A stretch of 64,000 bases of DNA from Archangium sp. (GTDB lineage: Bacteria; Myxococcota; Myxococcia; Myxococcales; Myxococcaceae): positions 6,720,259 through 6,784,258 of the forward strand of contig JASGKS010000001.1 of assembly GCA_047600485.1 (NCBI GenBank), in the 5' to 3' direction. Positions 19,440 through 46,793 of the stretch are shown piece by piece (the stretch's first letter is position 1; each line of letters opens with the position of its first letter). Below the pieces are notes generated by a model that searched no databases, had not been told where the DNA came from, and saw only the letters and a program-made list of their open reading frames with translations. Made by a program: the position numbers and the translations under genes.

Positions 19440-20390
19440 ATGAAGAAGCTCGCGCTCGCTGCCGTGTCCGTCGCCGTGCTGGCCGTCGTGCTCTGGCCTG
19501 CGTCTCTCCCCGCGGTTCAGCCGCACTCCTTCGTGCCCTTGCCGACGGCGACCACGCCGCTCACCGTGTGCTGGGTCGACACGGGAGGCCTCGACGCTCC
19601 CGCGCGCTACGGAGCTGCGGGGTTGCCGACCGCCGATGCATGGCACGTCACCTCAGCGGCGCTGCTGGTGCGCCACCCGAAAGGCGACGTGCTCATCGAC
19701 GCAGGGCTCTCGCCGAACGCCCAGCACGAAGCGAACGAGCTCGGGGCGTGGAAGCGCTTCGTCTTCTCGCAGACTGCGGGGCGCAATCAGCCGCGACGCT
19801 CGCTCACCGAAGCGCTGCGGCAGCTCGGCGTGACGAAGCTCACCGCCGTGATTCTCTCGCACGCGCACCCCGACCACATGGGTGGACTGGTGGCGCTCCG
19901 TGACGCGCCTGTGTGGCTCGCCGCCGAAGAGAAGACGTTCATCGAGAGTGGCAACACGGTGGTGATTCCCGCGCACGCTCGAGCGGTGAGCGGTCGCATG
20001 GCCGCGTTGAACTTCGAGCGCGTGCCATTCGCGAACTCCGATACGCGGGCCGACGTCTTCGGCGACGGCTCGGTGGTGGTGACACCCGCGTTCGGCCACA
20101 CGCCCGGCAGCATCAACACCTTCATCAATGCTCCCGGCGGGCGGCTGGTGCACGTGGGTGACCTCATCAACCTCCGCGAGTCGCTCACGCGCGAAGTGCC
20201 GAAGTCGTTCGCCATGCGAATGCTCACCGACGAAGACGTGCACGCCACGTCGGAGCAGGTCGCGCGTCTGGTCGAGCTGAGCAAGGCCGACCCGAAGCTC
20301 ACCATTCTCCCCGCGCACGACAGGCCCGGGTGGTCGGCGCTCTTCGGTGACGACGGCCTCGCGGGCGCGCCACCGTGTGTCCAGTGGTGA
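19440..20390 (+). CDS. MBL-fold hydrolase, N-acyl-homoserine-lactonase-like, secreted
   Basis: Signal peptide [28 protein letters not shown] zinc motif. Confidence 0.7.
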
Positions 20391-20454: not shown

Positions 20455-21435
<981 letters not shown>

Positions 21436-31395: not shown

Positions 31396-33960
31396 TCAGC
31401 GCAGCGGAACGCGGGTCTCGCCGACGCCGACGTCGACCACGCGCGCCTGACCGTCGGGCATCAAGAGCGTCACGCCCTTCACTTCACGCGCGCTGCTCAA
31501 CACCACCGCGTCCGCGTCGAGCGTGAGCCGCAGTTGCTGCACCGCGAGCAGATGCTCGGCGAGCGCGCGCAGCGTCGTGACCCACAGCTTGTTCTGCTTC
31601 TGATGTTTGCCGAGCCGCGCGAACACCTCGTCGGCCTCGTCACTCAAGCGATAGCCGTTGGGAATCTTCTCGAGGAGCGACCATTGGTCGAGCCGTGTGC
31701 CGGATTCCTCGATGAAGATGTCGAGGTAGGTGTGCGCGATGAGCAGGCCGCGTTCGTTCTCGAGCCGCTCGAGTGACTTCTGCGACAGCCGCTCGAAGAA
31801 CTCGCCGCGCTCGAGCGCCATCCACCGCGAGGGAAACAGCCACAGGTCGCCGGCGAGCGGGTGTTGGTAGAGCAGCGGCGTCTTCCCCGAGAAGAGATTC
31901 AAGTCCTTCAGGTGGTCGTCGTCGCCGCTCCATGCGTAGCGAAACTTCGCGTCGGTCAACGCCTTCAGCGTGTCGGCGCGCCCGGAGTTGGTGAGCGCTT
32001 CGCAGTTCGTCGTGGGCTGATGATCGATCCACGTGGTCGGCTTGAACTTCGCGAGCAGCTCGAGCCCCTCGACCGTCTTCTCGGGCGAATCAGGATCTCC
32101 CGAAGCGGAGTGTGAGCCGATCTCGATTCCGTCGGCGGCGAGCGCGTCGAGCAGCTCAACGAAGCGCGGGTCTTCCAGCTGCGCGGCGTAGCCATTCGAC
32201 GGCAGTGAGAACACCGCCTTGGTCATCGTCAGCCCGCGATTGGCGAAGCCCTTGTTGCCTCCGCGCGCGGCGAGCGGCGCCTTGTACGTCGATTTGCCGT
32301 ACATCAACGCGCCGAGCCGCGTGACGTTGGCTTGATCAGCGTGATCAGTCAGCACGAACGCCGCGCGAAAACCGTTCGGAAAACGCGACAGCAGCGGAAC
32401 GCTCGTGGTGCCGGGCAGCACCTGCAGCGACACGCTCAGCTTCTCACCGGCGATCACCTTGCGCGCCGAGAGGTCGACTTGCGGAGGCCGCGTGACGATG
32501 GGCTTGTCGGTCGCTTCCTTCACGCACTCGCTCCACAGATGAAACGGGTGCGAGGTCGCCACGTCGACGTCGAGGCGCAGCTTCGAGCTCGTGAGCGACA
32601 TCGCCTGCGCATGACCGATGAACGTCACGTCATCGAGCACCGCCACCTGCGGCGTCAGCGCATCGGCTCGCACCGGCGGCGCGCGGAACTTGAAGTTCTC
32701 GTCGAGCATCTTCGGCTTCGACGCGACGACCGGCAGCTCGACCCACGCGCTCTGGACTTCTCCGCTCTTCGAAAAGGTGACGGTGGTGTCGATGCCCCGA
32801 GTGGTGGCGTCGAACTTCCAGCTCGCGCTCGGCGTAACGAGCGTCGCGACGAAGCCGCCGTCGGTGCGTTCCCATCGCGCGTCCTTCGCGTCTTCGGTGG
32901 GCAGGCCGTTCAGCTGCACGTGCGCTTCAGGTTTCAGCGCGAGCGGCGTTCCTCCATCGGGGCGCGCGAGCGCGAGCGTGGTGCCGTCGAGCGTGAGCGA
33001 CCAGCTGCCGCTCTCATCGCGAGTCGGAGCTGGAGACGGAGGCGGCGCTCGCGACTTGCCGCGCTCGAGCATCAGCGCATGCAGTGACTGACCGAATTCC
33101 TGAAACGCGGGGTCGTCTTTGTCGAGCCCCTTCATGACGATGGCGACGATGTAGCGAGCGCCGGGCGACTCGATGAGCATGCCCTCGGCGATCTCCTTCC
33201 CGAGGATGCCGGGCTTCCCGTAGTACTCGGTGTCGCCGAAGCGCTTCTGAATGCCCTTCGAGAACAGCGCGAGGCCCGCGTTGTGAAACACCGACTTGAT
33301 CAGCCGCGAGTCGTCGGGAGTGACGAGCTTTCCCTGCTCCATCATCAAGAAGTAGCGAGCGACCTGGCGCGCGGTGGCGGCGATGCGCAGCTGGCCTTTG
33401 GGGCTCTTCGGCCACGGAGCCGACGGCGTCCACCACAGCCCTCCGGCCTTCTCGTCGTAGAGCTTGTGACGCGCGACGGCCTCGACGATCGACGCGTGCG
33501 TGGCCCACGCAAACAACGCGCTCGCGTCTTCGTTCGACGACGCCTTGATCATCCGGTCCATCGACGCGCGCAGGTTGATCAACTGCTGCGGCTGCTTCGT
33601 GACGTGCGCCTTGTCGACCACTCCGAGGAGGATGGCGATTTTCCCGAGCGAGGCGGGGAACGTCTCCCAGTCAGGACGCACCGCGGCGGCGGCGAGCGCG
33701 TGAGGATTCGTCAGATCCACCAGCACCAGCGAGAGCTGTTCATCGGCGAGCGCCTTCGCGAACGCAGGCCGCGCTTTCAACAGCGCGTCGACCTGCGCCT
33801 GCAGCTCTTCGTCGGGAGCGCCCCAGAGATCGGTCTCGAGATCACCCTTCGCGTCGAAGAGCGAGAGCTTCTCGGGGCCGGAGTGCTTCTTGATCTTCTG
33901 CGCGTGCGCGACGCCAGCGAAGGCGAAGGTCACGATGATCAACACCCACGCGCGCATCAC
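31396..33960 (-). CDS. Large secreted protein with N-terminal class-A beta-lactamase-like serine-hydrolase domain and possible C-terminal CE4/NodB-like domain
   Basis: Signal peptide MMRAWVLIIVTFAFAGVAHA. SxxK-like ASLGK and SSNED loop. C-terminal motifs LTDHAD, IGSHS, LLIAHT resemble deacetylase motifs. This is a tentative call. Confidence 0.5.
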   Translation of the reverse strand: MMRAWVLIIVTFAFAGVAHAQKIKKHSGPEKLSLFDAKGDLETDLWGAPDEELQAQVDALLKARPAFAKALADEQLSLVLVDLTNPHALAAAAVRPDWETFPASLGKIAILLGVVDKAHVTKQPQQLINLRASMDRMIKASSNEDASALFAWATHASIVEAVARHKLYDEKAGGLWWTPSAPWPKSPKGQLRIAATARQVARYFLMMEQGKLVTPDDSRLIKSVFHNAGLALFSKGIQKRFGDTEYYGKPGILGKEIAEGMLIESPGARYIVAIVMKGLDKDDPAFQEFGQSLHALMLERGKSRAPPPSPAPTRDESGSWSLTLDGTTLALARPDGGTPLALKPEAHVQLNGLPTEDAKDARWERTDGGFVATLVTPSASWKFDATTRGIDTTVTFSKSGEVQSAWVELPVVASKPKMLDENFKFRAPPVRADALTPQVAVLDDVTFIGHAQAMSLTSSKLRLDVDVATSHPFHLWSECVKEATDKPIVTRPPQVDLSARKVIAGEKLSVSLQVLPGTTSVPLLSRFPNGFRAAFVLTDHADQANVTRLGALMYGKSTYKAPLAARGGNKGFANRGLTMTKAVFSLPSNGYAAQLEDPRFVELLDALAADGIEIGSHSASGDPDSPEKTVEGLELLAKFKPTTWIDHQPTTNCEALTNSGRADTLKALTDAKFRYAWSGDDDHLKDLNLFSGKTPLLYQHPLAGDLWLFPSRWMALERGEFFERLSQKSLERLENERGLLIAHTYLDIFIEESGTRLDQWSLLEKIPNGYRLSDEADEVFARLGKHQKQNKLWVTTLRALAEHLLAVQQLRLTLDADAVVLSSAREVKGVTLLMPDGQARVVDVGVGETRVPLR

Positions 33961-35147
33961 TTCGTCTTCACGCAGTTGGCGATGATCAGGTGGTCGTTTT
34001 TCTGCTCGGTGCCATCGGCGTAGCCGAACCGCATCGGCACCTTCTTCGCGTTCTCGAACAGCGCCTTCACTTCGTCGACGTGCGGATCATTCTGCGCCTC
34101 GACGAGGAACGGCTTCTCGAATTTCCCGAACGCTTCGACCTTGCAGCCCTTCTCCTTCCATTCCGAAGGAGGCACGCCGGTCGAGTCGCTCACCATGAAC
34201 ACCGCGTTGGCGAGCAGCCAGTTGGTCAGCTTGCTGAAGCCGCCGTCCCACAAGAGGTAGCTCGCGGCCTTGGTCATGGCGGTGACGCGGCCCTTCTTCT
34301 CGAGATGCGCGATGAGCCCTGCCGGCAATTTCTTGTTCGCGAGGTTGGCGGCGAAGTGGCGATGAATGCGCGGAGTCGCGTCGCGCTGACCCTTCGGCAC
34401 GAACTGCACCTCGACGTTCGCGAACGCCGGAGAGAAGTCAGGGCTCTTCCACTCGTCGTTGAGCTTCTTCGCCTTCTTGCCGTCGAGCGCGTCGATGTCG
34501 TCGAGCGTGAGGTAGTGCAGAGAGCCGTCACTCTCGAGGCGGAAGAAGCGCACTGAGACCGGCTCCTGGCCTGCGAGCGCGAGCCCCATGAGATGCATCG
34601 AGAGCTGCGCCGGCAATTCACCGCGCTGCGCGTCGGACATCTCTTCGGAGACCGAGTCGTTGTTGATGAGCGTCGACTCGCTGACGTCGGCGATGACCTT
34701 GAGCGACTTCTTCAGCACCTTCGCGTCGCTCAACGACTTCCACCGTCGCGGGTCGCCGGCGAGCTCGAGCGAGATGGTGGTGACTTCCTGCGCCTCCGGG
34801 AAGAGCTGCAGCGCCGACATCAAGTCGCCACCGCCGAACGGGTACACCACCGAGGTCGGGAGGCCGGCCGGTTTGTGCGGAGTGAGAAAGCCGTTCGCCT
34901 TCTTCCCCCACTTCGAGGTGAAGCGGTCGTAGCGGCGCTTCTGCTTCACGCACCACTTGTCGACCACGCTCGCGTCGATGCCCGATGGCGTCGCCTGGCA
35001 GGTCACCAACTCGAAGATGGGGCGAACGTCGTCGATGAACTCCGCGGGCGCGGGCGAAGCGACCGCGGGTTGATCAGCCGCGGCCAACGTCAATGCGAGA
35101 GCGAGTCCGAACACGCCTTCGAAGAAGACCACGAAAGCGCGGGCCAC
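33957..35147 (-). CDS. Secreted hypothetical protein
   Basis: Signal peptide. 4-nt overlap with the upstream 854-aa gene. Confidence 0.55.
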   Translation of the reverse strand: MARAFVVFFEGVFGLALALTLAAADQPAVASPAPAEFIDDVRPIFELVTCQATPSGIDASVVDKWCVKQKRRYDRFTSKWGKKANGFLTPHKPAGLPTSVVYPFGGGDLMSALQLFPEAQEVTTISLELAGDPRRWKSLSDAKVLKKSLKVIADVSESTLINNDSVSEEMSDAQRGELPAQLSMHLMGLALAGQEPVSVRFFRLESDGSLHYLTLDDIDALDGKKAKKLNDEWKSPDFSPAFANVEVQFVPKGQRDATPRIHRHFAANLANKKLPAGLIAHLEKKGRVTAMTKAASYLLWDGGFSKLTNWLLANAVFMVSDSTGVPPSEWKEKGCKVEAFGKFEKPFLVEAQNDPHVDEVKALFENAKKVPMRFGYADGTEQKNDHLIIANCVKTK

Positions 35148-35177: not shown

Positions 35178-35657
35178 TCACTTCGCCGGCGGGAGCAAGA
35201 CCGCGTCGACGATGTGCACGATTCCGTTGCCGGCGCGGGCCGAGCCGAGAATCTGCGCGTCGTTCACGTACGTCTTTCCGTCCTTCACGTGGAAGACGAC
35301 GTTGCCGCCGTTCGCAACGCCCAGCTTCATGCCTTCCTTCATGGAGCGCACTTCGTAGACCGACACCGCCACGTGGAACTTGAGGATGTTCTGGAGCGCT
35401 TCTTTGCTCTCCGGCTTCATCAAGCCATCGAGCGTTCCTTTGGGGAGCTTGTCGAACGCTGCGTTGGTGGGCGCGAACACCGTGAACGGTCCGGCGTTCT
35501 GCAGAGAACGCACGTACTCGGCGGCCTTGAGCGCTGTGACGAGCGTGGTGTGGTCAGGCGAGCTCACGGCGATGTCGACCACCGTCGCGGGAGGTGCGTC
35601 GGCCGCGAGTGTGAACGACGAGAGGAGACAGATGATGGCGAGGGAAGTGCTTCGCAT
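35178..35657 (-). CDS. Fasciclin (FAS1) domain protein, secreted
   Basis: Signal peptide plus FAS1 motifs (TVFAPTNAAF, GIVHIVDAVLLP). Sits 34 nt downstream of nosY. Confidence 0.8.
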   Translation of the reverse strand: MRSTSLAIICLLSSFTLAADAPPATVVDIAVSSPDHTTLVTALKAAEYVRSLQNAGPFTVFAPTNAAFDKLPKGTLDGLMKPESKEALQNILKFHVAVSVYEVRSMKEGMKLGVANGGNVVFHVKDGKTYVNDAQILGSARAGNGIVHIVDAVLLPPAK

Positions 35658-35690: not shown

Positions 35691-36524
35691 TCAAGCAATG
35701 AGGTCCATGCGCTGCGCTCGACGGAGCGCAGCAAGCGTGGCGATGGTGCCCAGCGCGGCGGGCCAGGCGATGGCGACCGTCAGCGCGAGTGCCGGGCCCA
35801 GCGTGTTGGCGAGCCAGAAGCCGACGGGGCCGAGCACTGACAGCTCGGGGTCGGTGCTCGCCAGAATTCCCACGCGCGCGGCTTCGACGGGGTTGATGGC
35901 CGAGAGCGCGAAGACGAGCTGCGGCGGCAACGAGGTTCGCAGCAGCACGGTGATGAGCAGCACATCGTGGAGCGCCGCGGTGACGACGAAGAGCAGCAGC
36001 GACCACACCATCGCGCGCTCGGCGTTGCGCGCCCAGGTTGAGATGAACAGACCCAGGCCGATGAACGCGAAGACCAGCGCCACGCTGACCCCGACGCTCT
36101 TGAAGGCGATGACGGCCAACCCGGGTTCGGGCTCGACGAAGAACGCGGCGACGAAGCTGCCGATGAGCAGCACGAGCAGCGGGCCGACGAGCACGATGAG
36201 CCGCGAGACGAGCAGCGAGAAGAACCACGTCGAGCGCTTCACCGGCTGGGTGAGCATCAGCTCGCAGAAGCCGCTGGTGCGCGCGCGCACGACGGCAGCG
36301 TGGGTGGCCACCAGCACCACCAACGGAAACACGAGGATGATGGCGTTGGCGAGATTGAGCAGCACTCGCGAGAGACCGGTGAAGCCGAGCACGGTCGACT
36401 CGCGCAGGCCGAACCACACGAAGGCCCCGGCGAGCCCGAGGTAGATCAACCCGGTCAGCGCCACCCAGCGCGAGCGGAGCGCGTCGGCAAGCTCGAGCCG
36501 AAGGAACGCAGCGAAGGGACTCAT
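35691..36524 (-). CDS. nosY: ABC-2 type permease NosY
   Basis: Six-TM ABC-2 permease. Its start ATG overlaps the nosL stop (ATGA). Confidence 0.75.
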   Translation of the reverse strand: MSPFAAFLRLELADALRSRWVALTGLIYLGLAGAFVWFGLRESTVLGFTGLSRVLLNLANAIILVFPLVVLVATHAAVVRARTSGFCELMLTQPVKRSTWFFSLLVSRLIVLVGPLLVLLIGSFVAAFFVEPEPGLAVIAFKSVGVSVALVFAFIGLGLFISTWARNAERAMVWSLLLFVVTAALHDVLLITVLLRTSLPPQLVFALSAINPVEAARVGILASTDPELSVLGPVGFWLANTLGPALALTVAIAWPAALGTIATLAALRRAQRMDLIA

Positions 36525-36949
36525 GGCAACACCTGCTCGGTGCCCGGCCGCGCCTTCTTCGCGACAGCCGCGCGCACCTCGTCGAAGCCCACGCCCTCGT
36601 TGGCCGGGAGGAAGCCGAAGTCCATCGGGGTCTTGCCCGCCGCGAAGCGCGTCTGCGCGGGGTCCACCCACCCTTCTCCACGCGGATCACGGACCCAGCG
36701 CGCGACGACCTGAGGGTGCTCGCGGTCTTCCCACGAGATGAGACAACCGACGTCGTCGAAGAACTTTCGCTGGCCGTTCTCGAGCAACAGCTGCGCGCTC
36801 GGCGCCTTCTCGCTCACCAGCATCGAGCAGTGCGCGCACGCCTGCTTTCCCCACCAGGGTTCCTGCGGAGCGGCCGGCCCGCGCGCGCAAGCGGTGGCGA
36901 GCAACACCACCGCGACGAGCCGATTCCAGGTCATCGCGGAGCACTTCAT
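36521..36949 (-). CDS. nosL: Copper chaperone lipoprotein NosL
   Basis: Lipoprotein signal (LLATAC). CAHCSM and DDVGC motifs typical of the NosL family. Confidence 0.7.
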   Translation of the reverse strand: MKCSAMTWNRLVAVVLLATACARGPAAPQEPWWGKQACAHCSMLVSEKAPSAQLLLENGQRKFFDDVGCLISWEDREHPQVVARWVRDPRGEGWVDPAQTRFAAGKTPMDFGFLPANEGVGFDEVRAAVAKKARPGTEQVLP

Positions 36950-37650
36950 CGGACACCTCCCGGGCGCAGCGTGATGACGTTGTCGACGCTGGCCTGCGCG
37001 CCCCACTGCATGTGTTCGAGCGCGGCGTCCTGCACCACGCGGCCCTCGTCGAGCTGCACCACGCGCTGCACGAGGTGACGCACCTCATCGACGCGGTGGC
37101 TGCACAGCACGAGAATCGACGTCGCGGGCCGCGCGAGCACGTCGTCGAAGAAGGCGTTCCGCGCCGCGGCGTCGAGGTTGGCGGTCGGCTCGTCGCACAC
37201 CAGCACCGGCGCTTCGGCGGTCAGCGCCAGCGCGGCGAGCAGCTTCTGCTTCATGCCGCCCGAGAGGTCGCGCACGCGCGTCTTCGCCACGGCGTCGAGG
37301 TCGAGCCCGAGCCGCCGCGCACGCAACGCACACGCCCCCGGCTCGCGCGAGCGCAGGGCGCAGAACGCAGTGACCAATTCCCGCACCGGCGCGTCGAGCG
37401 GCGGAGCGACCTGGGGCATGCACGCCAGACTGCGCAGGGCGACCTCGGGTTCGCGCGCGACGTCACTCCCGAACAAGGTGACGCGCCCCTCGACGCGCAG
37501 CAACCCACACAGCGCGCGCAGCAGCGTGGTCTTGCCCGAGCCGTTGGTGCCGACGAGAGCCACGCGCTCACCGGGCTTGATGTCGAGCGACACCGCGTCG
37601 AGCGCACGCACGCGGCCAAACGTCTTGCTCACGTTCTGAAAGGAGATCAT
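36946..37650 (-). CDS. nosF: ABC transporter ATP-binding protein NosF
   Basis: Walker A GTNGSGKTT, LSGGMKQK signature, Walker B LVCDEP. Confidence 0.85.
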   Translation of the reverse strand: MISFQNVSKTFGRVRALDAVSLDIKPGERVALVGTNGSGKTTLLRALCGLLRVEGRVTLFGSDVAREPEVALRSLACMPQVAPPLDAPVRELVTAFCALRSREPGACALRARRLGLDLDAVAKTRVRDLSGGMKQKLLAALALTAEAPVLVCDEPTANLDAAARNAFFDDVLARPATSILVLCSHRVDEVRHLVQRVVQLDEGRVVQDAALEHMQWGAQASVDNVITLRPGGVR

Positions 37651-38888
37651 CGCGGCACCTCACGGTGGGGACGCATCGCGGGCGTCGGGTCTTGCAGCAG
37701 CAACGTCGCGCCGAAGTACGGCAACGCCGAGGCCACCGCGTCGTAGAGCCCGAAGGCCGCGGTGCCGTGGAACCAGTGGAGCTCGGGGTGGGCGTCGCTG
37801 ATGCCCGAAGACGCGCGCTTCACCTGGAACGCGACGTCACCCACGCCGTCGGAGTCGAGGTCGTAGCCGGCGTACGCCGCCCAGTGGTTGCCCGCGAAGT
37901 CGATGCCCAGCGCGTCGCCGTTCCCGTCGACCTCGACCAGCGCGTCGTTGTCGAGGAAGTCGTTGTCGGTGAACCGCGCGCCTCGCTCGCTGGAATGGGT
38001 GCGCAGCGCGCAGGCGTTGAGCGCCAGCATGTTCTCTTCGAACACCACCGGCTGCTTCGGGTCGCGCGGCGTGTAGTCGAGGTACAGGCCGGTGGTGTTG
38101 GCGACGATGGCGTTGCGGCGCAGCGTCACTGCGTCGCTTTCCTTGAAGCCGATGCCCATGCCCGCTGGCCCGCGCGCGCCAGACAGCTCGTTGTCCTCGG
38201 CGAGCACGCGGGCCGAGTACATGAAGAAGATGCCGACGGTGTTGCCGCGGAGCACGCTGCGCCGCACCGTCGAGTCGTGCGCGTACATGAAGTGCGTGCC
38301 GTAGCGGCCGCCGGTGATGCGGTTGTCTTCCAGCGTGACGTGGCGCGAGTACCAGACGACGAGGTCGCGCACGCCGCGCACGTCGAGCCGCCGCACCGTC
38401 GAGCCGTGCGCTTCCCACAGCTTCACGCCGTCGCCGCGCTGGTTCTCTTCGATCTCCGCGCGCCCCTCGATGCGGGTGTCCTCGAGCAGACAGGCGTGGC
38501 ACTGCTCGAACGCAATTCCATACAGCGTGTCACGCACCGCGACGCGACGGACGGTGGCGCGCTCTCCGGTGAGCTTGAGCGCGCCGTCTTCGAACGACAC
38601 GCGCGCGCCGGAGCCCTGGAAGGTGACGTCTTCCACCACCACGTCGTCGCCGTGAATGCGCAGGATGGTGGCCTTGCCGCTGCCCTGCAGCACGGCGTTC
38701 TCGCAGCCGTGAAGCGCGAGGCCACGCTTCACCTCGAAGTCACCCTGCACCGTGCCGCCGATCCACACGTCGCGGTCGCTGCCCTCGAGCGCGGCCTTCA
38801 ACGACGCCGCGTCACGGCTGGCGTTGGGAGGGCACGGCGGCGAGAGCGGACCGGCGGCGGTCAGCAGCGTGAGGAGCAGGGCGCTCAC
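37647..38888 (-). CDS. nosD: Periplasmic parallel beta-helix protein NosD
   Basis: Signal peptide plus repeated right-handed beta-helix units (NxxxGIxxxxS-type). Overlaps nosF by 4 nt. Confidence 0.8.
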   Translation of the reverse strand: MSALLLTLLTAAGPLSPPCPPNASRDAASLKAALEGSDRDVWIGGTVQGDFEVKRGLALHGCENAVLQGSGKATILRIHGDDVVVEDVTFQGSGARVSFEDGALKLTGERATVRRVAVRDTLYGIAFEQCHACLLEDTRIEGRAEIEENQRGDGVKLWEAHGSTVRRLDVRGVRDLVVWYSRHVTLEDNRITGGRYGTHFMYAHDSTVRRSVLRGNTVGIFFMYSARVLAEDNELSGARGPAGMGIGFKESDAVTLRRNAIVANTTGLYLDYTPRDPKQPVVFEENMLALNACALRTHSSERGARFTDNDFLDNDALVEVDGNGDALGIDFAGNHWAAYAGYDLDSDGVGDVAFQVKRASSGISDAHPELHWFHGTAAFGLYDAVASALPYFGATLLLQDPTPAMRPHREVPR

Positions 38889-38889
38889 G

Positions 38890-39348
38890 TCATTTCTCCA
38901 CGCTCTTGAGGTAGCTCAAGATGAATGGGAGCTCGGTCTGCGGGTTCACGCCCTGGTTCGGCATCGGCGTGAGGTGCTCGACGAAGGGCTTCTTGGCGGT
39001 CTCGTCGTCTTTGATCATCACGTCGGGGCGCAGAATCATCTTCTTGATCCACGTTTCGTCGCGGCGCGCGGTGACGCCCTTGAGATCAGGACCGACGAGC
39101 TTGCCGCCGCCGATCTTGTGACACGCCGAGCAACCCTTGGCGGCGAACGTCTCCTCGCCCTTCTTGATGTCGGCGGGCGCGGTGCTGATGGTGAAGGTCG
39201 GCACTTCGATCTCCACCTTCGCGGGCGCCGCGGGCTCGGCCGGTGCGGGAGCCGCGACCGCCTGCGGCTCGGGTGATTTGGGCGCTTCGGTCGGCTTTTC
39301 GTTGCACGCGGACAACACGAGTCCCGCGGCGAGGATGATTCGCTTCAT
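38890..39348 (-). CDS. Monoheme c-type cytochrome lipoprotein (clade II nos-associated)
   Basis: Lipobox LSAC. Single CSACH heme motif. The Met ligand is in MILRPDVM. Confidence 0.8.
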   Translation of the reverse strand: MKRIILAAGLVLSACNEKPTEAPKSPEPQAVAAPAPAEPAAPAKVEIEVPTFTISTAPADIKKGEETFAAKGCSACHKIGGGKLVGPDLKGVTARRDETWIKKMILRPDVMIKDDETAKKPFVEHLTPMPNQGVNPQTELPFILSYLKSVEK

Positions 39349-39388: not shown

Positions 39389-41350
39389 CTACTTCGCCTT
39401 CGGCTTCACCATGAAGTAGCCCATCATCTCGAGGTGCAGCGCCGAGCAGAACTCGGTGCAGTACATCGGGAAGACGCCCGGCTTGTCGGCGACGAACTTC
39501 ACGTTCTCGTGCTTGCCGGGCTCGAGCGACAAGTTGATGCCGTACATGTCGATGGTGAAGCCGTGCACCTGGTCCTCGGCCTGCTCGACCGAGGTGATGT
39601 GCAGGTAGACGATGTCGCCCTCTTCGACCTCGATGCGGTCGGGCGTGAAGTGGCTGCGAATGGCAGTCATGTACACGTTGACCACGTTGCCGTTGCGCTC
39701 GATGCGCTCCTTGCCCGGCGTGACGGCGAACTCGTCCTTCTGATCAGTGTAGGGGTTGGTGCCCATCGGGTAGACCTTCATGGGCGCCAACTTGTCCGCC
39801 TTGATCATCTGCGCGTAGTGCGGCTCGCCGATGCCGATGGGCATGTCGGCCAGCAGCTTCATCTTTTGTCCGTCGATGCCGACCAGCTGGAAGTTCTGCG
39901 GGTAGAGCGGACCGATGTTCGCGAAGCGGTCGATGCTCATCTTGTTCATCGCCACTACGTACTTGCCGTCGGGGCTGACCGTGTCGCCCTCCGCCGCGAG
40001 GATGTGGCCGATGTTGTAGTGAACCGGCAACTTCTCGACGACCTTCAGGGTCTTCAGGTCCCACTTCGCGACCACGCTCTCGATGAACACCGAGGTGTAG
40101 GCGAAGCCCTTGTCGTCGTAGACGGTGTGCAGCGGCCCAAGGCCGATCTCCACCTGCCCGCGAATGCTGTCCTTGAACGGGAGGATGTTGAGGCCGTAGC
40201 TGTCCTTGCCCTCGAACGTTCCCGCCTCGATGAGGTTCTTGATCTTCTCGAAGCGATACACGGTGGCGTGCGTGTCGAGCTTGCCGCCGACCACGATGTC
40301 TTCACCGTCGGGAGTGACGTCGACGCCGTGCGGTGACTTCGGCTCTGCGATGAGCGTGAGCACCTTCTCCGGCCCGGTGACCTCGAGCGGCAGCACCTTC
40401 ACGCCCTTGATGGTCTTCGCCTTGCCTTCCTTCACCAGCGCTTCGGCCTTCTTCCAGTTGATGACGTGGAGGAAGTCGGTGTCGTTCTGCGACGCGCCAG
40501 ACTCGACGGGCGGGTTGCCTTCGAGAATTCCGCCCGTAGCCATCTCGGTGTTGAAGCTGTTGATGAAGATGTAGCCGTCAGACGCGCGCTTGCCGGAGTC
40601 GGCGAGGTCCTGCGTGTACGGCGGCAGCTCGACGCCGAACGACTCGCTCTCGACGATGCGGCCCTTCGTGCGGTCGAACTTCCAGAACATCGCCAGGCCG
40701 CGGTACTTCTCCTTGTACTGGCTGACCGGCACGTACTCGCGGCCCAGCGGCGACGGGTACTGGCTGGTCTCGATGACGTAGTCGGTGTTGGGCGTGACGA
40801 AGGCGCCGCCGTGGTCGGACGCGACCAGCGGGTTGGGCACGATCTGCTTCGTCGCGAAGTCCGACAGGTCGACCACCGCCACGCGCGCGTTCGCCTTGTC
40901 GTTCACGAAGAGGAACTTGCCGTCGTAGTCGCCGTTCATCTCGCTCAGGTTCGGGTGGTGCACGTCGGCCCACGCGAGCTTGCCGCCCTTGTATTGCTGG
41001 CCACCCTCGAGCACCTGATCAGACAGACCGCCGTAGCCGTAGCCCTGCCACGGCTCGGGCGTGAACACGCCGAGCACCTTCAACAACCGCATCGAAGGCA
41101 CGCCGATGGTGAGCACCTGACCAGACTGACCACCCGACGCGAAGATGACGTAGTCGTCCTTCTGCCCGCTGGGCTTGTACGTGAGGAGCGCGGCCTCGAC
41201 GTCGGCTTCGCTCAACTTGCGCTGAGCCATGATGTCCTTGAGGCCCGCGCTGGCTTGAGCGACGGGAGCGGAAGACGGCGTGCCCGGCGTCGAGCCCGAA
41301 GAGCAGGCGCTCACGGACAGAACGACGAGGGCGAGGAGAAGACGTTTCAT
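39389..41350 (-). CDS. nosZ: Nitrous-oxide reductase NosZ, clade II (Sec/lipoprotein type)
   Basis: 653 aa. N-terminal MKRLLLALVVLSVSAC with no twin-Arg. Beta-propeller CuZ His region. C-terminal CuA motif CTEFCSALHLEMMGYF. Strong GGAGG RBS. Confidence 0.95.
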   Translation of the reverse strand: MKRLLLALVVLSVSACSSGSTPGTPSSAPVAQASAGLKDIMAQRKLSEADVEAALLTYKPSGQKDDYVIFASGGQSGQVLTIGVPSMRLLKVLGVFTPEPWQGYGYGGLSDQVLEGGQQYKGGKLAWADVHHPNLSEMNGDYDGKFLFVNDKANARVAVVDLSDFATKQIVPNPLVASDHGGAFVTPNTDYVIETSQYPSPLGREYVPVSQYKEKYRGLAMFWKFDRTKGRIVESESFGVELPPYTQDLADSGKRASDGYIFINSFNTEMATGGILEGNPPVESGASQNDTDFLHVINWKKAEALVKEGKAKTIKGVKVLPLEVTGPEKVLTLIAEPKSPHGVDVTPDGEDIVVGGKLDTHATVYRFEKIKNLIEAGTFEGKDSYGLNILPFKDSIRGQVEIGLGPLHTVYDDKGFAYTSVFIESVVAKWDLKTLKVVEKLPVHYNIGHILAAEGDTVSPDGKYVVAMNKMSIDRFANIGPLYPQNFQLVGIDGQKMKLLADMPIGIGEPHYAQMIKADKLAPMKVYPMGTNPYTDQKDEFAVTPGKERIERNGNVVNVYMTAIRSHFTPDRIEVEEGDIVYLHITSVEQAEDQVHGFTIDMYGINLSLEPGKHENVKFVADKPGVFPMYCTEFCSALHLEMMGYFMVKPKAK

Positions 41351-41391
41351 GTGAACCTCCGGGAGTTGCGAGTCGTGACGGCGCGCTGAAG

Positions 41392-41407
41392 TGCGAGCGA
41401 TGTGCCA
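41392..41407 (-). promoter_or_regulatory. Candidate sigma-54 (-24/-12) promoter upstream of nosZ
   Basis: The minus strand reads TGGCAC-ATCGC-TCGCA. The GG/GC spacing is exact and there is one mismatch to the TTGCA -12 element. The -12 element lies about 40 nt upstream of the nosZ ATG. Confidence 0.45.
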
Positions 41408-41515
41408 GCGCTGATCAGGAGCGCGGAGCGAGCGCAGCGCGTCGATTCGCTGCAGCGCGTGCGCGCGAGCCCGAATTCACGCAACCAGTGCGCACCGGCA
41501 TGTTCCGCCGCCGGT

Positions 41516-42495
41516 TCACTTTGAAACCGCCTCGTATTGCTTGAGCTTGCGCCACAGCGTGGTGCGCCCGATGCCGAGCACGCGCGCGGCGTCGACCAGC
41601 TGACCTCCGCAGGCGTCGAGCACGCGCAACACGTGCCGCTTCTCCGCCTCGTAGAGCGAGAGGAGCGGGTCGTTCACCGTCAGCGCCGGCTGCAGCACCA
41701 CCTCGGGCAGATGCGCCGGCTCGATGGCCTGGCCACGCGCGAGCTGTGCGGCGCTGCGCACGGCGTTGTGAAGCTCGCGCACGTTGCCCGGCCACGAATA
41801 GGCGCGCAGCGCACCGAGCGATGCCGGCACGAAGCCGGCGTGGTTGCCCTGCTGCTCGAGGAACATCTCGGCGAGCGAGAGCACGTCGTCACCGCGCGCG
41901 CGCAGCGGCGGCACTTCGAGCGTGAACACGCTGAGCCGATAGAAGAGGTCTTCGCGAAACCGCCCGTCGCGCACGAGTCGTTGCAGGTCGTGCACGGTCG
42001 AGCACACCAGCCGTACGTCGACGTGCACGGGTGCGCCGCCGCTCGGGTGAACTTCACGGTCTTCGACGACGCGGAGCAGCGGCCCTGCACCACGAGCGGG
42101 AGGTCTGCCACCTCGTCGAGAAAGAGCGTTCCCCCGTGCGCCACTTCGAATGCGCCGTGGCGCAACACCGCGCCGAAGAGCTCGAGCGACAGCGCGTCGA
42201 CTTCGCCCGCGGCGCAGTTGAGCACCACGAACGGCCGGTCGCGCCGCGGACTGTTCACGTGGAGCGTGCGCGCGAGCACCTCTTTCCCGACGCCGGGCTC
42301 TCCACGCAGGAGCAGCGGCTCGGGAGCACCCGCGAGCGCCTCGAGGCGCGAGAGAATGGTCTGCATCGTCTCGCTCTGCGCGACGAGTCGGCGGCAGGTG
42401 CGCGGGCCGGCGTGCTGCTCGGCCGCGGCGCTGCAAATCCTGCACAGCGTGCCTCGCTCGACCGGGCTGCTGCACGTGAAGGGTCCCAGAGCCAT
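41516..42495 (-). pseudogene. Sigma-54-dependent activator with Cys-rich N-terminus, interrupted by a -1 frameshift (or sequencing error)
   Basis: The N-terminal part (GEPGVGKE...GGTLFLDEVADLPLVVQGR) and the C-terminal part (LLRVVEDRE...VDVRLVCST...GNVRELHN...HTH) are each contiguous but lie in two frames. The junction at about 42079-42083 is consistent with one missing C. Confidence 0.7.
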
Positions 42496-42561
42496 GCGCA
42501 GATGCGGTGCATGGACGGTACCGGCGCGACGCTGGCGTGCCCGATGCACCGCAGGCTGCGC

Positions 42562-43221
42562 ATGAAGATCTACCTCTCGCGCTTCTACGCCTTCCTCGCG
42601 CAGCCGCTCCGGCCGGTCTCGCGCGTCGTGCTCGCGACGCTGGCCGTGCCGCTGGCGCTGGCGTTCTTCCAGCCGCTGTGGCGCATCTCGATGGAAGCGC
42701 CGCAGTACCCCGCGGGGCTGTACCTCGACATCTACGCGCACACCGTCGAGGGCGGGAACGGCGGCCAGCACCTTCAGGAAATCAACACGCTCAATCACTA
42801 CATCGGCATGCGCACGCTCGATCGCGCGGCGATGACCGACCTCGACTGGATTCCGTTTGCGCTCGGCGCGCTGCTCATCTTCGCGCTGCGCGTGGCCGCC
42901 ATCGGCAACGTGAGCTCGCTGGTCGATCTCGCGGTCGCCACCTTCTATGTGAGCGCCTTCGCGTTCGGCCGCTTCGTCTACACGCTGTGGGTGTTCGGTC
43001 ATCACCTGAAGCCCGATGCGCCCGTGAAGGTGCCGGGGTTCATGCCCGCGGTGCTGGGCAGCAAGCAGATCGCCAACTTCACGACGCACAGCGGGCCACG
43101 CGAGGGCTCGTTCCTCCTCGGCGTCTTCGTGTTGGGCGTGCTCGGCGTACTCCTCTTTCACCTCGTCGCAGGGCGGCGTGAGGCCGTGCGGCAGGCGGCG
43201 CTCGCTGGCGCGGCGGCTTGA
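42562..43221 (+). CDS. Hypothetical integral membrane protein (4 TM)
   Basis: Divergent from the sigma-54 activator. Hydrophobic helices. First gene of the plus-strand operon. Confidence 0.5.
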   Translation: MKIYLSRFYAFLAQPLRPVSRVVLATLAVPLALAFFQPLWRISMEAPQYPAGLYLDIYAHTVEGGNGGQHLQEINTLNHYIGMRTLDRAAMTDLDWIPFALGALLIFALRVAAIGNVSSLVDLAVATFYVSAFAFGRFVYTLWVFGHHLKPDAPVKVPGFMPAVLGSKQIANFTTHSGPREGSFLLGVFVLGVLGVLLFHLVAGRREAVRQAALAGAAA

Positions 43222-43224
43222 CCC

Positions 43225-44499
43225 ATGACGACGCTCACGCAACGCCACCTGCGTCTGGGCGTGGTCGCGACGCCCGCACGTCAGGCCGCGCCATGGACAC
43301 CGTTCGTCGTCGCGTCGCTCGTCTTCACCGTGCTCGTCGGAGCGCTCACCGGCGCGCTCGACTTGTGGACGTTGCGCGTCCTCCAGACTGCGGTGCCCGA
43401 GGCGCATCGGCAGGCGCACGCGCTCGGTCAGCTGTTCGGCTTCCTGTGGCTGCTGACGCTCGGCGTCTCGCTGCACCTCGCTCCGAAGTTCTTCGCGCAC
43501 CCCGAGCCACGCCCTGAGCTGGTGCGCGCGCTCGCGTGGTTCGGCATCGGCGGCGTGGTGCTGCTCGTCATCGGCCGCTTCGGCCGGCTGGTTCCGCACT
43601 CCGCTTCACTCGGCGCCGTCGGTGCGTTCGCGCTGCTGGTGACGATGACCGCGTGGCTCCACTGGCTCTCGCAGGCGTGGAGACAGGGCGTCGCGCCGAA
43701 GGAGCCGCTCCACGCCTTCATCACCGCGGGCGCCGCGTGGTGGTGGCTCGCTTCGCTCGGCGTCATGGCGTGGACGTGGTGGCCCGCGAAGGTGCCGCTC
43801 GAGGCCGTGTGGCGCATCGCGCTCTTCGGCGGCGTCGCGTCGTGGCTGTGGGGCGTCTTCTTCCGCGCAGGAATCTGCACCTTGCGCGTGCAGCGACCGA
43901 CGCTCCGCTCGCAGTGGGTGCTCTTCGGCATGTGGCAGCTCGCGAGCGCCTCGAGCGTGCTCGCCGTGGTCTTCGACGCGCGCGCGCTGCAATTCACCGC
44001 CGGCCTCAGCATGGCCGCGGCGTGCGCGCTGTTGTGGCGCAACGTGCGGCCCTTCTCGGGTGACGGCGTCGCGGCGCTCGGGGCGCTCCAGCCGCGCGCG
44101 GTGCAGGCCGGCCTGGTCTTCGTCGCGCTCTTCGGCGCACTGCAGGCGTGGGTGGCGCTGCGCGCGCTCGAGGTGTGGAGCCCTGCGTTGCTCGACGATG
44201 CCGCTCGGCACGCGTTCACGCTCGGCGCGGCGACTCTGCTCGCGTTCGGCTTCGCCGGGCGCATGGTGCCCGGCTTCCTCGGAACCTCTCTGCGTTGGCC
44301 GCGCGTCTACGACGTCGGCGTGGTGCTCGTGGCGTGCGGCGCCGCCGGTCGATTCGCCGAGCTGTCGGCCCTGCCCGTGATGCAGCGCCTCGCGGGGGGC
44401 TCCGGTGCGCTCGCGGCCCTCGGCGTCACGGCCCTCACCGCCTCGCTGCTGCGCTCGATTCGCGCAGGACGCGCTCTGCAGCAGGAGCGCGCGTCATGA
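43225..44499 (+). CDS. Polytopic membrane protein, NnrS-like (NO-response heme-copper membrane protein family)
   Basis: 424 aa, about 12 TM helices, Trp/His-rich. The NnrS assignment rests on size, topology and denitrification context. Confidence 0.45.
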   Translation: MTTLTQRHLRLGVVATPARQAAPWTPFVVASLVFTVLVGALTGALDLWTLRVLQTAVPEAHRQAHALGQLFGFLWLLTLGVSLHLAPKFFAHPEPRPELVRALAWFGIGGVVLLVIGRFGRLVPHSASLGAVGAFALLVTMTAWLHWLSQAWRQGVAPKEPLHAFITAGAAWWWLASLGVMAWTWWPAKVPLEAVWRIALFGGVASWLWGVFFRAGICTLRVQRPTLRSQWVLFGMWQLASASSVLAVVFDARALQFTAGLSMAAACALLWRNVRPFSGDGVAALGALQPRAVQAGLVFVALFGALQAWVALRALEVWSPALLDDAARHAFTLGAATLLAFGFAGRMVPGFLGTSLRWPRVYDVGVVLVACGAAGRFAELSALPVMQRLAGGSGALAALGVTALTASLLRSIRAGRALQQERAS

Positions 44500-45392
44500 G
44501 CGTCAGAAAAGTAAGTCTTTGCTTACTTCTATTGGCGGCTCCTGCGGCACAAGGCGCGGCCTGCTGCCTGTCGGTCTCGGTGGTCGGGGCCGGCCGGCTC
44601 ACCGCGTGGGAAGCGGGAGCAGCGGGCGTCTCGTCTTCTTTCGCGCACAGCACCGGGCGCTGGAACGGCGCCAGCACCTGGCGAGCCTTCGACGGCGGCC
44701 TGCTGGAAGACGAGCTGCGCTTCGAAGCGTGGGGCATCGTGCGGCTCGCCGACGCGTGGCAGCTCTCGGCGCGCGTGCCGTGGGTCGTCGGTTTCCGCTC
44801 GGCGGGTGACGTGAACTCGGTCGGCACGGGCCCGGGTGACGTCAGCGCCGCGATTCGCTGGGAAGCGGTGCCGCTCGGAGCGTGGCTGCACGTACCGGGC
44901 ATCGCGTTCACCGCCGGCGTCACGGGTCCGACGGGCCGACGGCCGGAGCAGGCCACCGACACGCTCGGAGCGAGCATCACCGGGCGCGGCGCGTTCGGCG
45001 GAAGTCTTGGCGTGACGGTCGAGGAGACGTGGAACCCGTGGTTCGTGCGCGGAGACGGTGGAGCGACGGTGTTCGCTCCGTTCACGCGGCAGGACCTCGG
45101 CGCGTCGCAGTGGCTCGGCCCCAACCTGCAGGTCGCGCTCTCGGGTGGCCGCGAGTTGTTCGAGAAGCTGGTGCTCGCGCTCTCGGTGCGCGTCGACCAC
45201 GACTTCCCGTACGCGCTCGACGGTCGCGTCATCGCGGGTTCCGCGGCGACCACGCTCTCGGCTTCGGCCTCAGCCGCATGGAAGGTGACCAACCACTGGA
45301 CCGTCACGGCCGCCGTCACCGGCGACGCGCTGGGCGTCAACCGCGAGGCGCGTCTCGCCGCCACCCTCGGAGTTCGTCATGGCTTCTTCTGA
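44496..45392 (+). CDS. Outer-membrane beta-barrel-like protein
   Basis: Signal peptide, alternating amphipathic strands, C-terminal ...HGFF. ATGA overlap with the upstream gene. Confidence 0.45.
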   Translation: MSVRKVSLCLLLLAAPAAQGAACCLSVSVVGAGRLTAWEAGAAGVSSSFAHSTGRWNGASTWRAFDGGLLEDELRFEAWGIVRLADAWQLSARVPWVVGFRSAGDVNSVGTGPGDVSAAIRWEAVPLGAWLHVPGIAFTAGVTGPTGRRPEQATDTLGASITGRGAFGGSLGVTVEETWNPWFVRGDGGATVFAPFTRQDLGASQWLGPNLQVALSGGRELFEKLVLALSVRVDHDFPYALDGRVIAGSAATTLSASASAAWKVTNHWTVTAAVTGDALGVNREARLAATLGVRHGFF

Positions 45393-46011
45393 GCTGCGCC
45401 GCGCCATCGCTGTCGCCGTGCTGGTGTTCGCGGGCTGCGCGACGTCGAGCTCGTCGCGCGGGTTGCAGCACGCGACGCTGACCTCGACCACGCGCGCGCG
45501 CACCACCGCGCAAGAACTCGTCGCCGCGTCCGACGGCACGGTGTTCGTCTTCTGGTCGGGCGGCTGCCCGTGCGTGCGCCGCTACCAGGCGCGCATCGAA
45601 GCGCTCGCGGCCGAGTGGAGCGTTCGCGGCATCGCGTTCGTGCAGGTCTCGAGCAACGCGGGAGAGAGCATCGACTCGCTCGCCGACGTGGCGCGAAACC
45701 GCGGGCTGAAGCTGCCGCTGTGGCGCGACGACGAAGGCGCGCTGGCCGAAGCGCTCGACGCGCGCACCACACCGACCGTGGTGTTCGTCGCGCGTGATGG
45801 CCGCGTGCTCTACCGCGGGTGGATCGACAACGAGCGCGCGCCCGGAGAAGACGGTCGCGAGGCGTGGCTCGAAGACGCGCTCGTAGGCTTCACCGCGGGC
45901 AGGCCGTTCGCCAGCCGCACGCCGACCTGGGGCTGCACCATCACCCGCTCACTCGCGCGCTCGTCGGCGCCGCTGTGTCACGTCGTCACCGAAGAAGGAG
46001 TCACGCCATGA
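45379..46011 (+). CDS. Thioredoxin-fold lipoprotein (TlpA/Sco-like thiol-disulfide oxidoreductase)
   Basis: Lipobox FAGC. FVFWSGGCPCV redox motif. Confidence 0.6.
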   Translation: MASSELRRAIAVAVLVFAGCATSSSSRGLQHATLTSTTRARTTAQELVAASDGTVFVFWSGGCPCVRRYQARIEALAAEWSVRGIAFVQVSSNAGESIDSLADVARNRGLKLPLWRDDEGALAEALDARTTPTVVFVARDGRVLYRGWIDNERAPGEDGREAWLEDALVGFTAGRPFASRTPTWGCTITRSLARSSAPLCHVVTEEGVTP

Positions 46012-46793
46012 AGTTCTTTGGGCTCTGCGTCGTTGTGTCGCTGTTCGCATGTGGGCCGCAGCCATCGGCCACTCCCGACTCCACGCTTCGTGCGAGCGCG
46101 ACGAGCGGTGAGCTGACGGTCGAACTGCGCTCCGACGAGCCGCTGCACGTCGGGCAGAACGTGGTGCGCTACCGGGTGTTGCACGACGGCGTCGACGCAC
46201 CGCACGCGCTGATCACGCAGACGCCGCGAATGCAGATGATCATGGGCTCGGGCGAGACCCCGCACGGGTGCCCGCTGAAGAACCCCGACCACGAGCCGAA
46301 CGCCGACGGCTTCTTCGAGGGGCTGCTGGTCTTCACCATGCCGAGCTCTGTCGACACGCGGTGGTCGCTCACGCTCGAGGTCGAGCTGCACCACGGCGCG
46401 GCGCCACTGCTCGTCGACTTCGGTGAGCTCGAGATTGCTGACTCCACGTCGCGGCAGTTCGCGATGCGTGACGGGCAGCGCGTGATGCTCACCGCGGCGC
46501 TCGAGTCGAAGCCGAAGCTGGGAGCGAACACCTTCATCGTCACCGCGCATCGCGCCGAAGACGCGGCCCTGCTCTCGTGGGTGCCGGTGACCGACCTGAC
46601 GTTCAGCGTGACGCCCGAGATGCCGGTGATGGGCCATGGGTCGTCGAACAACGAGGCTCCGGTGCCCGGCGAAGACGGCCTGTACCGGGGCACGGTGAAC
46701 TTCATGATGGCCGGTGACTGGGTGGTGCACGTGGGCGCGCGCGCTGGTGACGTCGCGCTGACGACCTTCGACGTGCCGTTCACCGTCGAGTGA
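46008..46793 (+). CDS. Lipoprotein with Met/His-rich putative Cu(I)-binding motif (CopC/YtkA/PCuAC-like)
   Basis: MKFFGLCVVVSLFAC lipobox. TPRMQMIMGSGETPHG and MPVMGHG Met-His clusters. Two beta-sandwich-like halves. Confidence 0.5.
   Translation: MKFFGLCVVVSLFACGPQPSATPDSTLRASATSGELTVELRSDEPLHVGQNVVRYRVLHDGVDAPHALITQTPRMQMIMGSGETPHGCPLKNPDHEPNADGFFEGLLVFTMPSSVDTRWSLTLEVELHHGAAPLLVDFGELEIADSTSRQFAMRDGQRVMLTAALESKPKLGANTFIVTAHRAEDAALLSWVPVTDLTFSVTPEMPVMGHGSSNNEAPVPGEDGLYRGTVNFMMAGDWVVHVGARAGDVALTTFDVPFTVE

Follow-up and report, generated by a model that had tools for sequence, protein, structure and literature searches.

The probable nosZ promoter element and its conservation

A 64,000-nt stretch of Archangium sp. 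DNA (assembly GCA_047600485.1, contig JASGKS010000001.1), hereafter the window, carries a gene for a Sec-dependent (clade II) nitrous oxide (N2O) reductase, nosZ; all window coordinates refer to this stretch. Upstream of nosZ lie a 16-nt element of the sigma-54 (RpoN) -24/-12 type and, directly upstream and on the same strand, a gene resembling those of enhancer-binding proteins (EBPs). Sequence comparisons suggest that the 16-mer serves as the -24/-12 element of a working sigma-54 promoter, a reading to which we assign a probability of about 0.8. The features on which the argument turns are the following.

39389..41350, minus strand: nosZ, Sec-dependent (clade II) N2O reductase, 653 aa (TIGR04246; Pfam nos_propeller and cupredoxin domains)
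41356..41360, minus strand: ribosome-binding site (GGAGG) 5 nt upstream of the nosZ start codon (from the sequence)
41379..41383, minus strand: predicted nosZ transcription start, about 41381 (standard sigma-54 geometry, 12 nt past the -12 C)
41392..41407, minus strand: probable sigma-54 -24/-12 promoter element of nosZ, TGGCACATCGCTCGCA (sequence, weight matrix, conservation)
41516..42495, minus strand: EBP-like regulator gene of a type here called Cys4 EBP (four-cysteine N-terminus, AAA+, HTH_8), GAFTGA-less and frameshifted (Pfam, alignments)
42533..42548, plus strand: second sigma-54-type element, TGGCGTGCCCGATGCA, 13 nt before the NosB-like ATG (motif and conservation)
42562..43221, plus strand: divergent NosB-like membrane-protein gene, 219 aa (tblastn)

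NosZ scores 838 bits against TIGR04246 and 396 bits against the TAT-type model TIGR04244 (cut-off 625 in both cases), and its N-terminus, MKRLLLALVVLSVSAC, is a lipobox-type Sec signal, that is, a non-Tat lipoprotein signal peptide. On the minus strand the promoter element reads TGGCAC (41407-41402), ATCGC (41401-41397) and TCGCA (41396-41392), with GG at 41406-41405 (-25/-24) and GC at 41394-41393 (-13/-12) in exact GG-N10-GC spacing, and it matches 10 of the 11 specified bases of TGGCAC-N5-TTGCW. Its last base (41392) lies 41 nt 5' of the nosZ ATG (41350) on the sense strand, and the 5' untranslated region predicted from this geometry would span about 31 nt and contain the GGAGG at 41360-41356. 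The sequence agrees in these respects with a first-pass annotation of the locus, which had described a minus-strand element with exact spacing and a single mismatch, about 40 nt from the nosZ ATG and followed by a GGAGG site.

A position weight matrix (PWM) was trained on 29 nosZ-upstream sites of other genomes, excluding close relatives of the window. The nosZ site scores 19.7 bits, within the 12.9-23.0 span of the training sites, and ranks first of 127,958 window positions (next best 13.4, then 11.3; mean -26.2, standard deviation 9.6). The weight-matrix check that the first-pass annotation had called for therefore places the site at the top of the background of the 64-kb window. By our own arithmetic, the chance of a match with at most one mismatch in the 61 sense-strand positions upstream of nosZ is about 0.0008. 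Counting consensus matches over the whole window was discarded as uninformative in favor of the PWM and comparative tests; sigma-54-like patterns with at most two mismatches occur there 8 times compared with 25.6 in shuffles, and are thus three times rarer than in shuffled sequence.

Besides the PWM ranking, two comparative tests are decisive: conservation among related nosZ loci and invariance in the closest lineages. The comparison set comprised 80 nosZ loci from other genomes, all of them Myxococcota metagenome-assembled genomes (MAGs) that are of the Archangium, Polyangiaceae or Labilithrix type and have a NosZ identity of 64-91%. The nosZ start was located in each locus and the upstream DNA then scanned, a scan that covers 78 loci and scores the motif as conserved when GG and GC are intact, with at most two mismatches, 20-80 nt upstream of nosZ. 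Such a motif occurs in 33 of the 78 loci, whereas other parts of these loci yield it at a rate of 0.0065 per 61-nt window (0.65%; binomial P ~5e-51, for loci that are related), and it occurs in 19 of 78 when a single mismatch is tolerated (background 0.001). Variants across clades fit the sigma-54 consensus, combining TGGCAC, TGGTTC or TGGCCC with TTGCA, TTGCT, TCGCA or TGGCA. Upstream flanks vary widely from locus to locus, and in distant loci the spacer varies as well, only the sigma-54-diagnostic positions being kept.

In the five closest lineages (the window, L081, L001, L082 and L085) the 16-mer is 100% identical, set in an intergenic spacer of about 165 nt that averages 73% identity. Six other loci (L002, L007, L008, L011, L014 and L026) have nosZ and the NosB-like gene as immediate divergent neighbors, lacking a regulator gene between the two, and all of these except L026 keep the nosZ sigma-54 motif. 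Activation in trans therefore occurs naturally at promoters of this kind.

The alternative of regulation by NosR or FNR-type factors, which the first-pass annotation had set aside, found no footing in the scans. No FNR/CRP-type box (TTGAT-N4-ATCAA, at most three mismatches) lies in 40949-42217, no sigma-70-like hexamer pair was detected in 41200-42700, and no nosR-like gene is present among the nos-cluster open reading frames (ORFs) scanned. An Rfam scan of 41000-42000 at E<=1 returned no family, and hence no known leader or riboswitch. Note that loose FNR-like patterns (at most three mismatches) number 126 window-wide compared with 54 in shuffles, twice as many; this excess and the deficit of sigma-54-like patterns are probably effects of codon usage.

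Several points count against a functional sigma-54 promoter. Position -14 of the element is C and not T. The related loci are phylogenetically non-independent, and the nominal P values (1e-40 to 1e-51) are for that reason too extreme, although the flanks of these loci differ widely and the motif variants follow the consensus. No RpoN box was found in a six-frame translation of the 64-kb window. The sole linked activator gene is without GAFTGA and frameshifted. The scan of 41200-42700 detected no intrinsic terminator, and with none between the EBP-like gene and nosZ, read-through could add to nosZ expression. Furthermore, the window holds one match to the consensus with at most one mismatch where dinucleotide shuffles predict 1.71, which is not above chance and would fit a functionless chance match in GC-rich DNA. 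The PWM rank, the correct strand and distance, the excess of the motif among relatives and its invariance in the closest of them all argue otherwise, and these comparative data leave a chance origin very unlikely, with hardly any probability attached to it.

The last of these points concerns the 5-nt spacer, which reads ATCGC without change in all five closest lineages, beyond what sigma-54 needs. The CTGA just 5' of the element is also invariant in the five GAFTGA-less lineages, and the ATCGC spacer varies in GAFTGA-positive relatives. Sigma-54 recognition alone does not account for this extra constraint. Given that sigma-54 reads the spacer weakly, the 16-mer could be the operator of another DNA-binding protein, for example the GAFTGA-less regulator, and resemble a sigma-54 site only in appearance. 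However, distant loci conserve the sigma-54-diagnostic positions and leave the spacer free, the 16-mer is not palindromic, its distance from the start codon is that of a promoter, and the candidate site of the regulator family is a different sequence (IR1, below). We regard an operator as highly improbable.

As for sigma-54 itself, another EBP, with GSFTGA, is encoded in the window at about 20476-21435 (plus strand), which indicates that the organism uses this factor; rpoN is present and essential in Myxococcus xanthus.

The adjacent regulator gene

The EBP-like gene runs from an ATG at 42495 to a stop codon at 41518-41516. Its product matches Pfam PF00158, PF25601 and PF02954, and its PDB matches are ZraR (1.8e-58) and NtrC1. 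Where ZraR, NtrC1 and FleQ carry HEKGAFTGA (HxxGAFTGA), however, it reads ELFG----AVLRHGAFEVAHGGTLFLDE, with a gap of nine residues. The same deletion is found in L001 (protein P0003), P0001, P0002 and P0004, whereas 115 of the 120 best homologues retain the motif. The string HGAFEVA was considered as a degenerate GAFTGA and rejected, because in alignments it falls on a conserved segment of the orthologues, GLFE(T/V)A, located before Walker B.

A second lesion is confined to the window copy. Compared with L081 and L001 DNA, one nucleotide (G) is missing between 42080 and 42081, and the frame is lost beyond about residue 138. In the window, Pfam Sigma54_activat is consequently matched in two separate frames, while orthologues, including P0001 (90% identical), are read in a single frame. 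The frameshift could be real pseudogenization or a GG-to-G sequencing error; if it is real, the adjacent gene yields no DNA-binding protein.

The GAFTGA-less proteins keep the four cysteines, the Walker motifs and the helix-turn-helix (HTH). At equal NosZ distance they share 66% amino acid identity, compared with 81-86% for GAFTGA-positive orthologues, and have thus evolved about twice as fast; regulators of the five closest lineages are only 63-90% identical. Their ratio of nonsynonymous to synonymous substitution rates (dN/dS) is about 0.37, against roughly 0.17-0.32 in GAFTGA-positive proteins. The GAFTGA-less proteins are therefore relaxed but not neutral, and so still do something.

The GAFTGA loop contacts sigma-54, and mutants in the loop generally fail to activate (PMC7175178). 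Natural GAFTGA-less homologues of bacterial EBPs (bEBPs) act at sigma-70 promoters (10.1101/2023.06.06.543975; PMC6158489). Loop loss and frameshift therefore speak against the adjacent gene as sigma-54 activator here, and with strong confidence we hold that the activator in this genome is not its product. The first-pass annotation had cited the neighboring EBP gene in favor of RpoN-dependent expression; in this genome such support falls away, with nine residues of HxxGAFTGA gone and a 1-nt frameshift besides. GAFTGA-positive orthologues in other genomes very probably do activate the nosZ promoters there, so the logic holds for the family and not for the window copy. By the same token, the label "sigma-54-dependent regulator" on a neighboring gene does not prove an activator role.

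These same lesions raise the possibility that the promoter is a relic or merely poised, inherited but no longer firing, with nosZ expressed by read-through or from an unrecognized sigma-70 promoter helped by the GAFTGA-less regulator. The NtrC proteins of Caulobacter and Rhodobacter and VpsR are precedents for GAFTGA-less proteins at sigma-70 promoters (10.1101/2023.06.06.543975; PMC6158489). The loss of the loop in the window, L001, P0001, P0002 and P0004, the frameshift in the window copy, the missing terminator before nosZ, and the retention of cysteines, Walker motifs and HTH at a dN/dS of about 0.37 would all be consistent with such an arrangement. On the other side, a dead site would not be expected to stay invariant in five lineages whose regulators and spacers have diverged; moreover, no sigma-70-like hexamers were found, and relatives without the EBP gene keep the sigma-54 motif. 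We therefore consider a relic unlikely and retain the functional sigma-54 promoter as the better account.

Relatives of the window form a series in which the regulator is an intact Cys4 EBP, is GAFTGA-deleted, is frameshifted (the window) or is absent, and the promoter persists throughout. This persistence shows that a trans-encoded activator can serve the promoter. The locus is also a natural series of regulator rewiring.

Inverted repeats, the Cys4 EBP family and a proposed model of activation

Three repeats lie upstream of the promoter, at distances typical of enhancers (about 70-150 nt upstream); they are conserved, and protein binding to them is putative.

41513..41527, minus strand: inverted repeat IR1, GTTTCAAAGTGAACC, centered at about -139 and overlapping the EBP-like stop codon (the only GTTTCA-N3-TGAAAC match with at most one mismatch in the window)
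41481..41491, minus strand: inverted repeat IR2a, GCACTGGTTGC, GCA-N5-TGC, centered at about -105 (pair conserved in the five closest lineages)
41452..41462, minus strand: inverted repeat IR2b, GCACGCGCTGC, GCA-N5-TGC, centered at about -76 (pair conserved in the five closest lineages)

Among hexamers upstream of the related nosZ promoters, GTTTCA/TGAAAC, which forms IR1, shows the strongest enrichment (17 observed, 1.4 expected). IR2a and IR2b are spaced 29 nt apart, a distance kept in 5/5 closest lineages, and similar pairs occur in L010/L013/L017, L007 and L014. IR1 is a candidate binding site of the Cys4 EBP family. IR2 was considered as the primary site of these proteins and rejected, because distant family members carry IR1, not IR2, beside their genes; the IR2 pair would instead be the best candidate site for a second, trans-encoded activator.

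All members of the Cys4 EBP family, an uncharacterized group of activators, begin with about 40 residues that include four invariant cysteines, and continue with AAA+ and HTH_8 domains. The cysteines are spaced C-x9-10-C-x2-C-x11-12-C in Archangium-type members, with some variation across the family. No NCBIfam equivalog cut-off is reached, the scores for NorR, NtrC, NifA, PspF and others all being far below. An AlphaFold model of P0002 is confident in the AAA+ and HTH domains (mean predicted local distance difference test score, pLDDT, 89.5) and has pLDDT 48-67 in the Cys4 segment, so that it says nothing on the geometry of a metal site.

In Archangium-like relatives a GAFTGA-positive Cys4 EBP gene closely precedes nosZ, and in some of them a hemerythrin-HHE gene separates the two. 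A sample of seven more distant members (L086-L092) extends the association to other settings: the gene is divergent beside nosZ-nosDFY clusters in L090, L091 and L092, adjoins qNor in L089, and adjoins DUF2249/hemerythrin genes in L086-L088 (acidobacterial, planctomycete and Schekmanbacteria MAGs). All seven have a sigma-54 motif before the neighboring gene, and six of the seven have IR1 (at most two mismatches) at the start of the regulator gene, against an IR1 background of 0.037 per kb. This recurrence ties IR1 to the Cys4 EBP and, at the level of sequence, delineates a module of EBP, IR1 and sigma-54 promoter before genes of N-oxide metabolism. The distance from IR1 to the -24 element of the divergent gene, which IR1 precedes, is about 53-67 nt in L087, L090 and L092 and about 90-100 nt in L091; in L086 and L088 the sigma-54 motif comes after the regulator gene and is separated from IR1 by about 1.1 kb.

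Hemerythrin-HHE genes, often fused to DUF2249, recur beside Cys4 EBP genes across phyla, at these positions within their loci:

L005, 5276-5773: hemerythrin-HHE gene
L006, about 5350-5841: hemerythrin-HHE gene
L090, 6090-6584: hemerythrin-HHE gene
L086, 6154-6834: hemerythrin-HHE gene
L088, 6084-6767: hemerythrin-HHE gene
L087, 1479-2174: hemerythrin-HHE gene

In five of the six loci the gene is immediately downstream of the regulator; in L087 it belongs to a divergent operon at a distance of about 2.8 kb. The lineage of the window lacks the hemerythrin-HHE gene. Judged by this linkage, the protein may be a sensor or anti-activator partner of the Cys4 EBP.

Two further observations concern regulators at related loci. 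A 487-aa NosZ-like ORF in L092 (3430-4893, minus strand), beside a Cys4 EBP variant and nosDFY, has an arginine-rich C-terminal part that looks out of frame and may be a frameshifted or assembly-damaged nosZ. Polyangiaceae and Labilithrix loci L049, L054, L058, L063, L065, L067 and L076 have an NtrC-type response-regulator EBP instead of a Cys4 EBP, about 2-3 kb upstream of nosZ on the opposite strand. GAFTGA is missing from this protein in L054, L063 and L067 and is replaced by GAFPGA in L058 and GALPGA in L065, and CTGAGAGTG is enriched upstream of nosZ promoters in loci with the NtrC-type EBP.

The mechanism we propose is that of an ordinary sigma-54/EBP system; more novelty lies in the regulator family and in the branch of it that lost GAFTGA. 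Sigma-54 holoenzyme would bind 41407..41392 in a closed complex unable to open by itself, and an upstream-bound EBP would hydrolyze ATP and remodel that complex from candidate sites at IR1 (about -139) or the GCA-N5-TGC pair (about -105 and -76). Transcription would then start near 41381 with a leader of about 31 nt containing GGAGG, leading to expression of nosZ, the cytochrome c gene and nosDFY, and the divergent NosB-like operon would be driven likewise by the second sigma-54 promoter at 42533..42548 (plus strand). The motif with its geometry and conservation, the repeats upstream, the defects of the adjacent gene and the gene neighborhoods of the family are shown directly; sigma-54 binding, the start site, the pairing of proteins with repeats and the sensed signal we infer from them. 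The ancestral activator would have been the adjacent Cys4 EBP binding IR1. In this genome the promoter would be opened by an EBP encoded elsewhere, most likely an IR2-recognizing protein, or else an unlinked GAFTGA-positive Cys4 paralogue; that the activator here binds the IR2 pair is a tentative assignment, for which the odds fall a little short of even. The RpoN dependence of nosZ proposed in the first-pass annotation is in this way upheld as to the conserved promoter with its upstream repeats, and not as to the adjacent EBP as activator in this genome.

On a broader scale, the Cys4 bEBP family might, in Myxococcota and other phyla, be the missing dedicated regulator of clade II nos clusters and of genes for qNor and hemerythrin. 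It would use a Cys4 metal or Fe-S center, perhaps with a hemerythrin partner, to sense nitric oxide (NO), O2 or redox state, and would fire sigma-54 promoters. In the lineage of the window the GAFTGA deletion would have turned it into a non-activating modulator situated between two sigma-54 promoters, with a GCA-N5-TGC-binding activator taking over. We offer this scenario as speculative, with roughly one chance in three of being correct as a whole.

Known systems and neighboring genes

NorR sites have the form GT-N7-AC. The closest analogue of the Cys4 EBP module is NorR with sigma-54 (Escherichia coli norVW; Ralstonia eutropha norAB), which likewise combines a sigma-54 promoter, upstream inverted repeats and a bEBP encoded beside N-oxide genes. 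NorR differs in having an N-terminal GAF domain with non-haem iron that senses NO, whereas the Cys4 EBP has a four-cysteine segment of about 40 residues and no GAF domain, and scores 221 bits against the NorR equivalog (cut-off 476). The target also differs, being nosZ here, and the repeat is GTTTCA-N3-TGAAAC in place of the NorR type. In function the Cys4 EBP module would be analogous to NorR, with a different sensor. PspF-type bEBPs share the short build, with AAA+ and HTH_8 domains, a small N-terminal extension and a partner gene that often adjoins. The hemerythrin-HHE gene that follows the regulator suggests regulation in trans of the PspA-PspF kind; however, PspF has no Cys4 motif, and the putative partner here is a di-iron hemerythrin-like protein, not PspA.

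The GAFTGA-less proteins can be compared with Rhodobacter capsulatus NtrC, Caulobacter NtrC, NtrX, Vibrio VpsR and TyrR, which show the same precise in-frame loss of the L1 loop with Walker motifs and HTH kept. Those known cases are at sigma-70 promoters, whereas the protein here has a strictly conserved sigma-54 promoter on either side, and one of these two still carries IR1, the site of the family, upstream.

Organisms with clade II (Sec-type) nosZ are abundant in soils. To our knowledge, little has been established about how these organisms turn nosZ on; the regulators described (FNR/DNR/NnrR/FixK2, NosR, NssR) are those of clade I organisms or Epsilonproteobacteria. Canonical clade I control, through FNR/DNR/NnrR/FixK2 boxes and NosR, also governs nosZ and maturation genes, and the locus described here departs from it in the lack of an FNR-type box (40949-42217) and of a nosR-like gene among the cluster ORFs scanned. 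At the Bradyrhizobium diazoefficiens nosR promoter the authors found a FixK2 box and no -24/-12 element (PMC5582078). Bradyrhizobium NifA-RpoN is nonetheless a precedent for sigma-54 and EBP input to denitrification genes, an effect exerted via the RegSR-NifA cascade, with nosRZDFYLX itself FixK2-dependent (PMC5582078, PMC6710368). In contrast, the -24/-12 element here lies directly at nosZ. Full-text literature searches on sigma-54/RpoN with nosZ, clade II or Anaeromyxobacter returned no account of a sigma-54 promoter at nosZ of clade II or of myxobacteria; the papers returned concern instead Bradyrhizobium FixK2/NnrR or rpoN as a reference gene in quantitative PCR. Nor do these papers mention the four-cysteine EBP family, at which itself no search was aimed. 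A conserved module of sigma-54 promoter, dedicated activator and defined operator offers a concrete, testable regulatory model in Myxococcota and other phyla, and promoter, IR1 and Cys4 EBP could serve as sequence signatures to predict the conditions of N2O reductase expression.

Downstream of nosZ the cluster continues on the same strand.

38890-39348, minus strand: cytochrome c gene (Pfam)
37647-38888, minus strand: nosD (Pfam)
36946-37650, minus strand: nosF (Pfam)
35691-36671, minus strand: nosY (Pfam)

The genes from cytochrome c through nosD and nosF to nosY (35691..39348) are probably co-transcribed with nosZ. The nosZ, cytochrome c, nosD, nosY and fasciclin genes each align to L001 in one frame; nosF gave no alignment to L001.

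The NosB-like protein has no Pfam or NCBIfam match and is homologous to the product of the gene after nosZ in Polyangiaceae loci, the NosB position. In tblastn searches it is 73-99% identical at the divergent position in close relatives and 31-40% identical in about 55 loci, where the match lies about 2.6-3.4 kb from the nosZ start, past the nosZ coding region and on the same strand. The element before it is the only TGGCG-N6-WTGCA match in the window (0.25 expected), and of 17 related loci that were examined, 15 have GG-N10-GC 12-15 nt before the start codon of the orthologue, the distances in L008 and L015 being 24 and 34 nt. A predicted start at about 42559 implies a nearly leaderless NosB-like mRNA.

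Three conserved flanking ORFs have no Pfam or NCBIfam match: 33957-35147 (minus strand), 43225-44499 (plus strand) and 44148-45392 (plus strand). The 424-aa ORF after the NosB-like gene has the same order in L085. Proteins with a YtkA domain (45819-46793) and a fasciclin domain (35178-35657) are also encoded nearby, and all of these may be uncharacterized nos accessory proteins. Finally, the second-best PWM site of the window (13.4 bits), TGGTCCACCACTTGCT at 18428-18443 (minus strand), is intergenic and upstream of a 190-aa ORF (17843-18415). This ORF is followed by a gene for an ODP-family di-iron protein of beta-lactamase fold (17106-17846), with a LysR-type gene nearby (18470-19441) and the EBP gene with GSFTGA farther along (about 20476-21435), and the region may be a further sigma-54 unit linked to O2 or NO.

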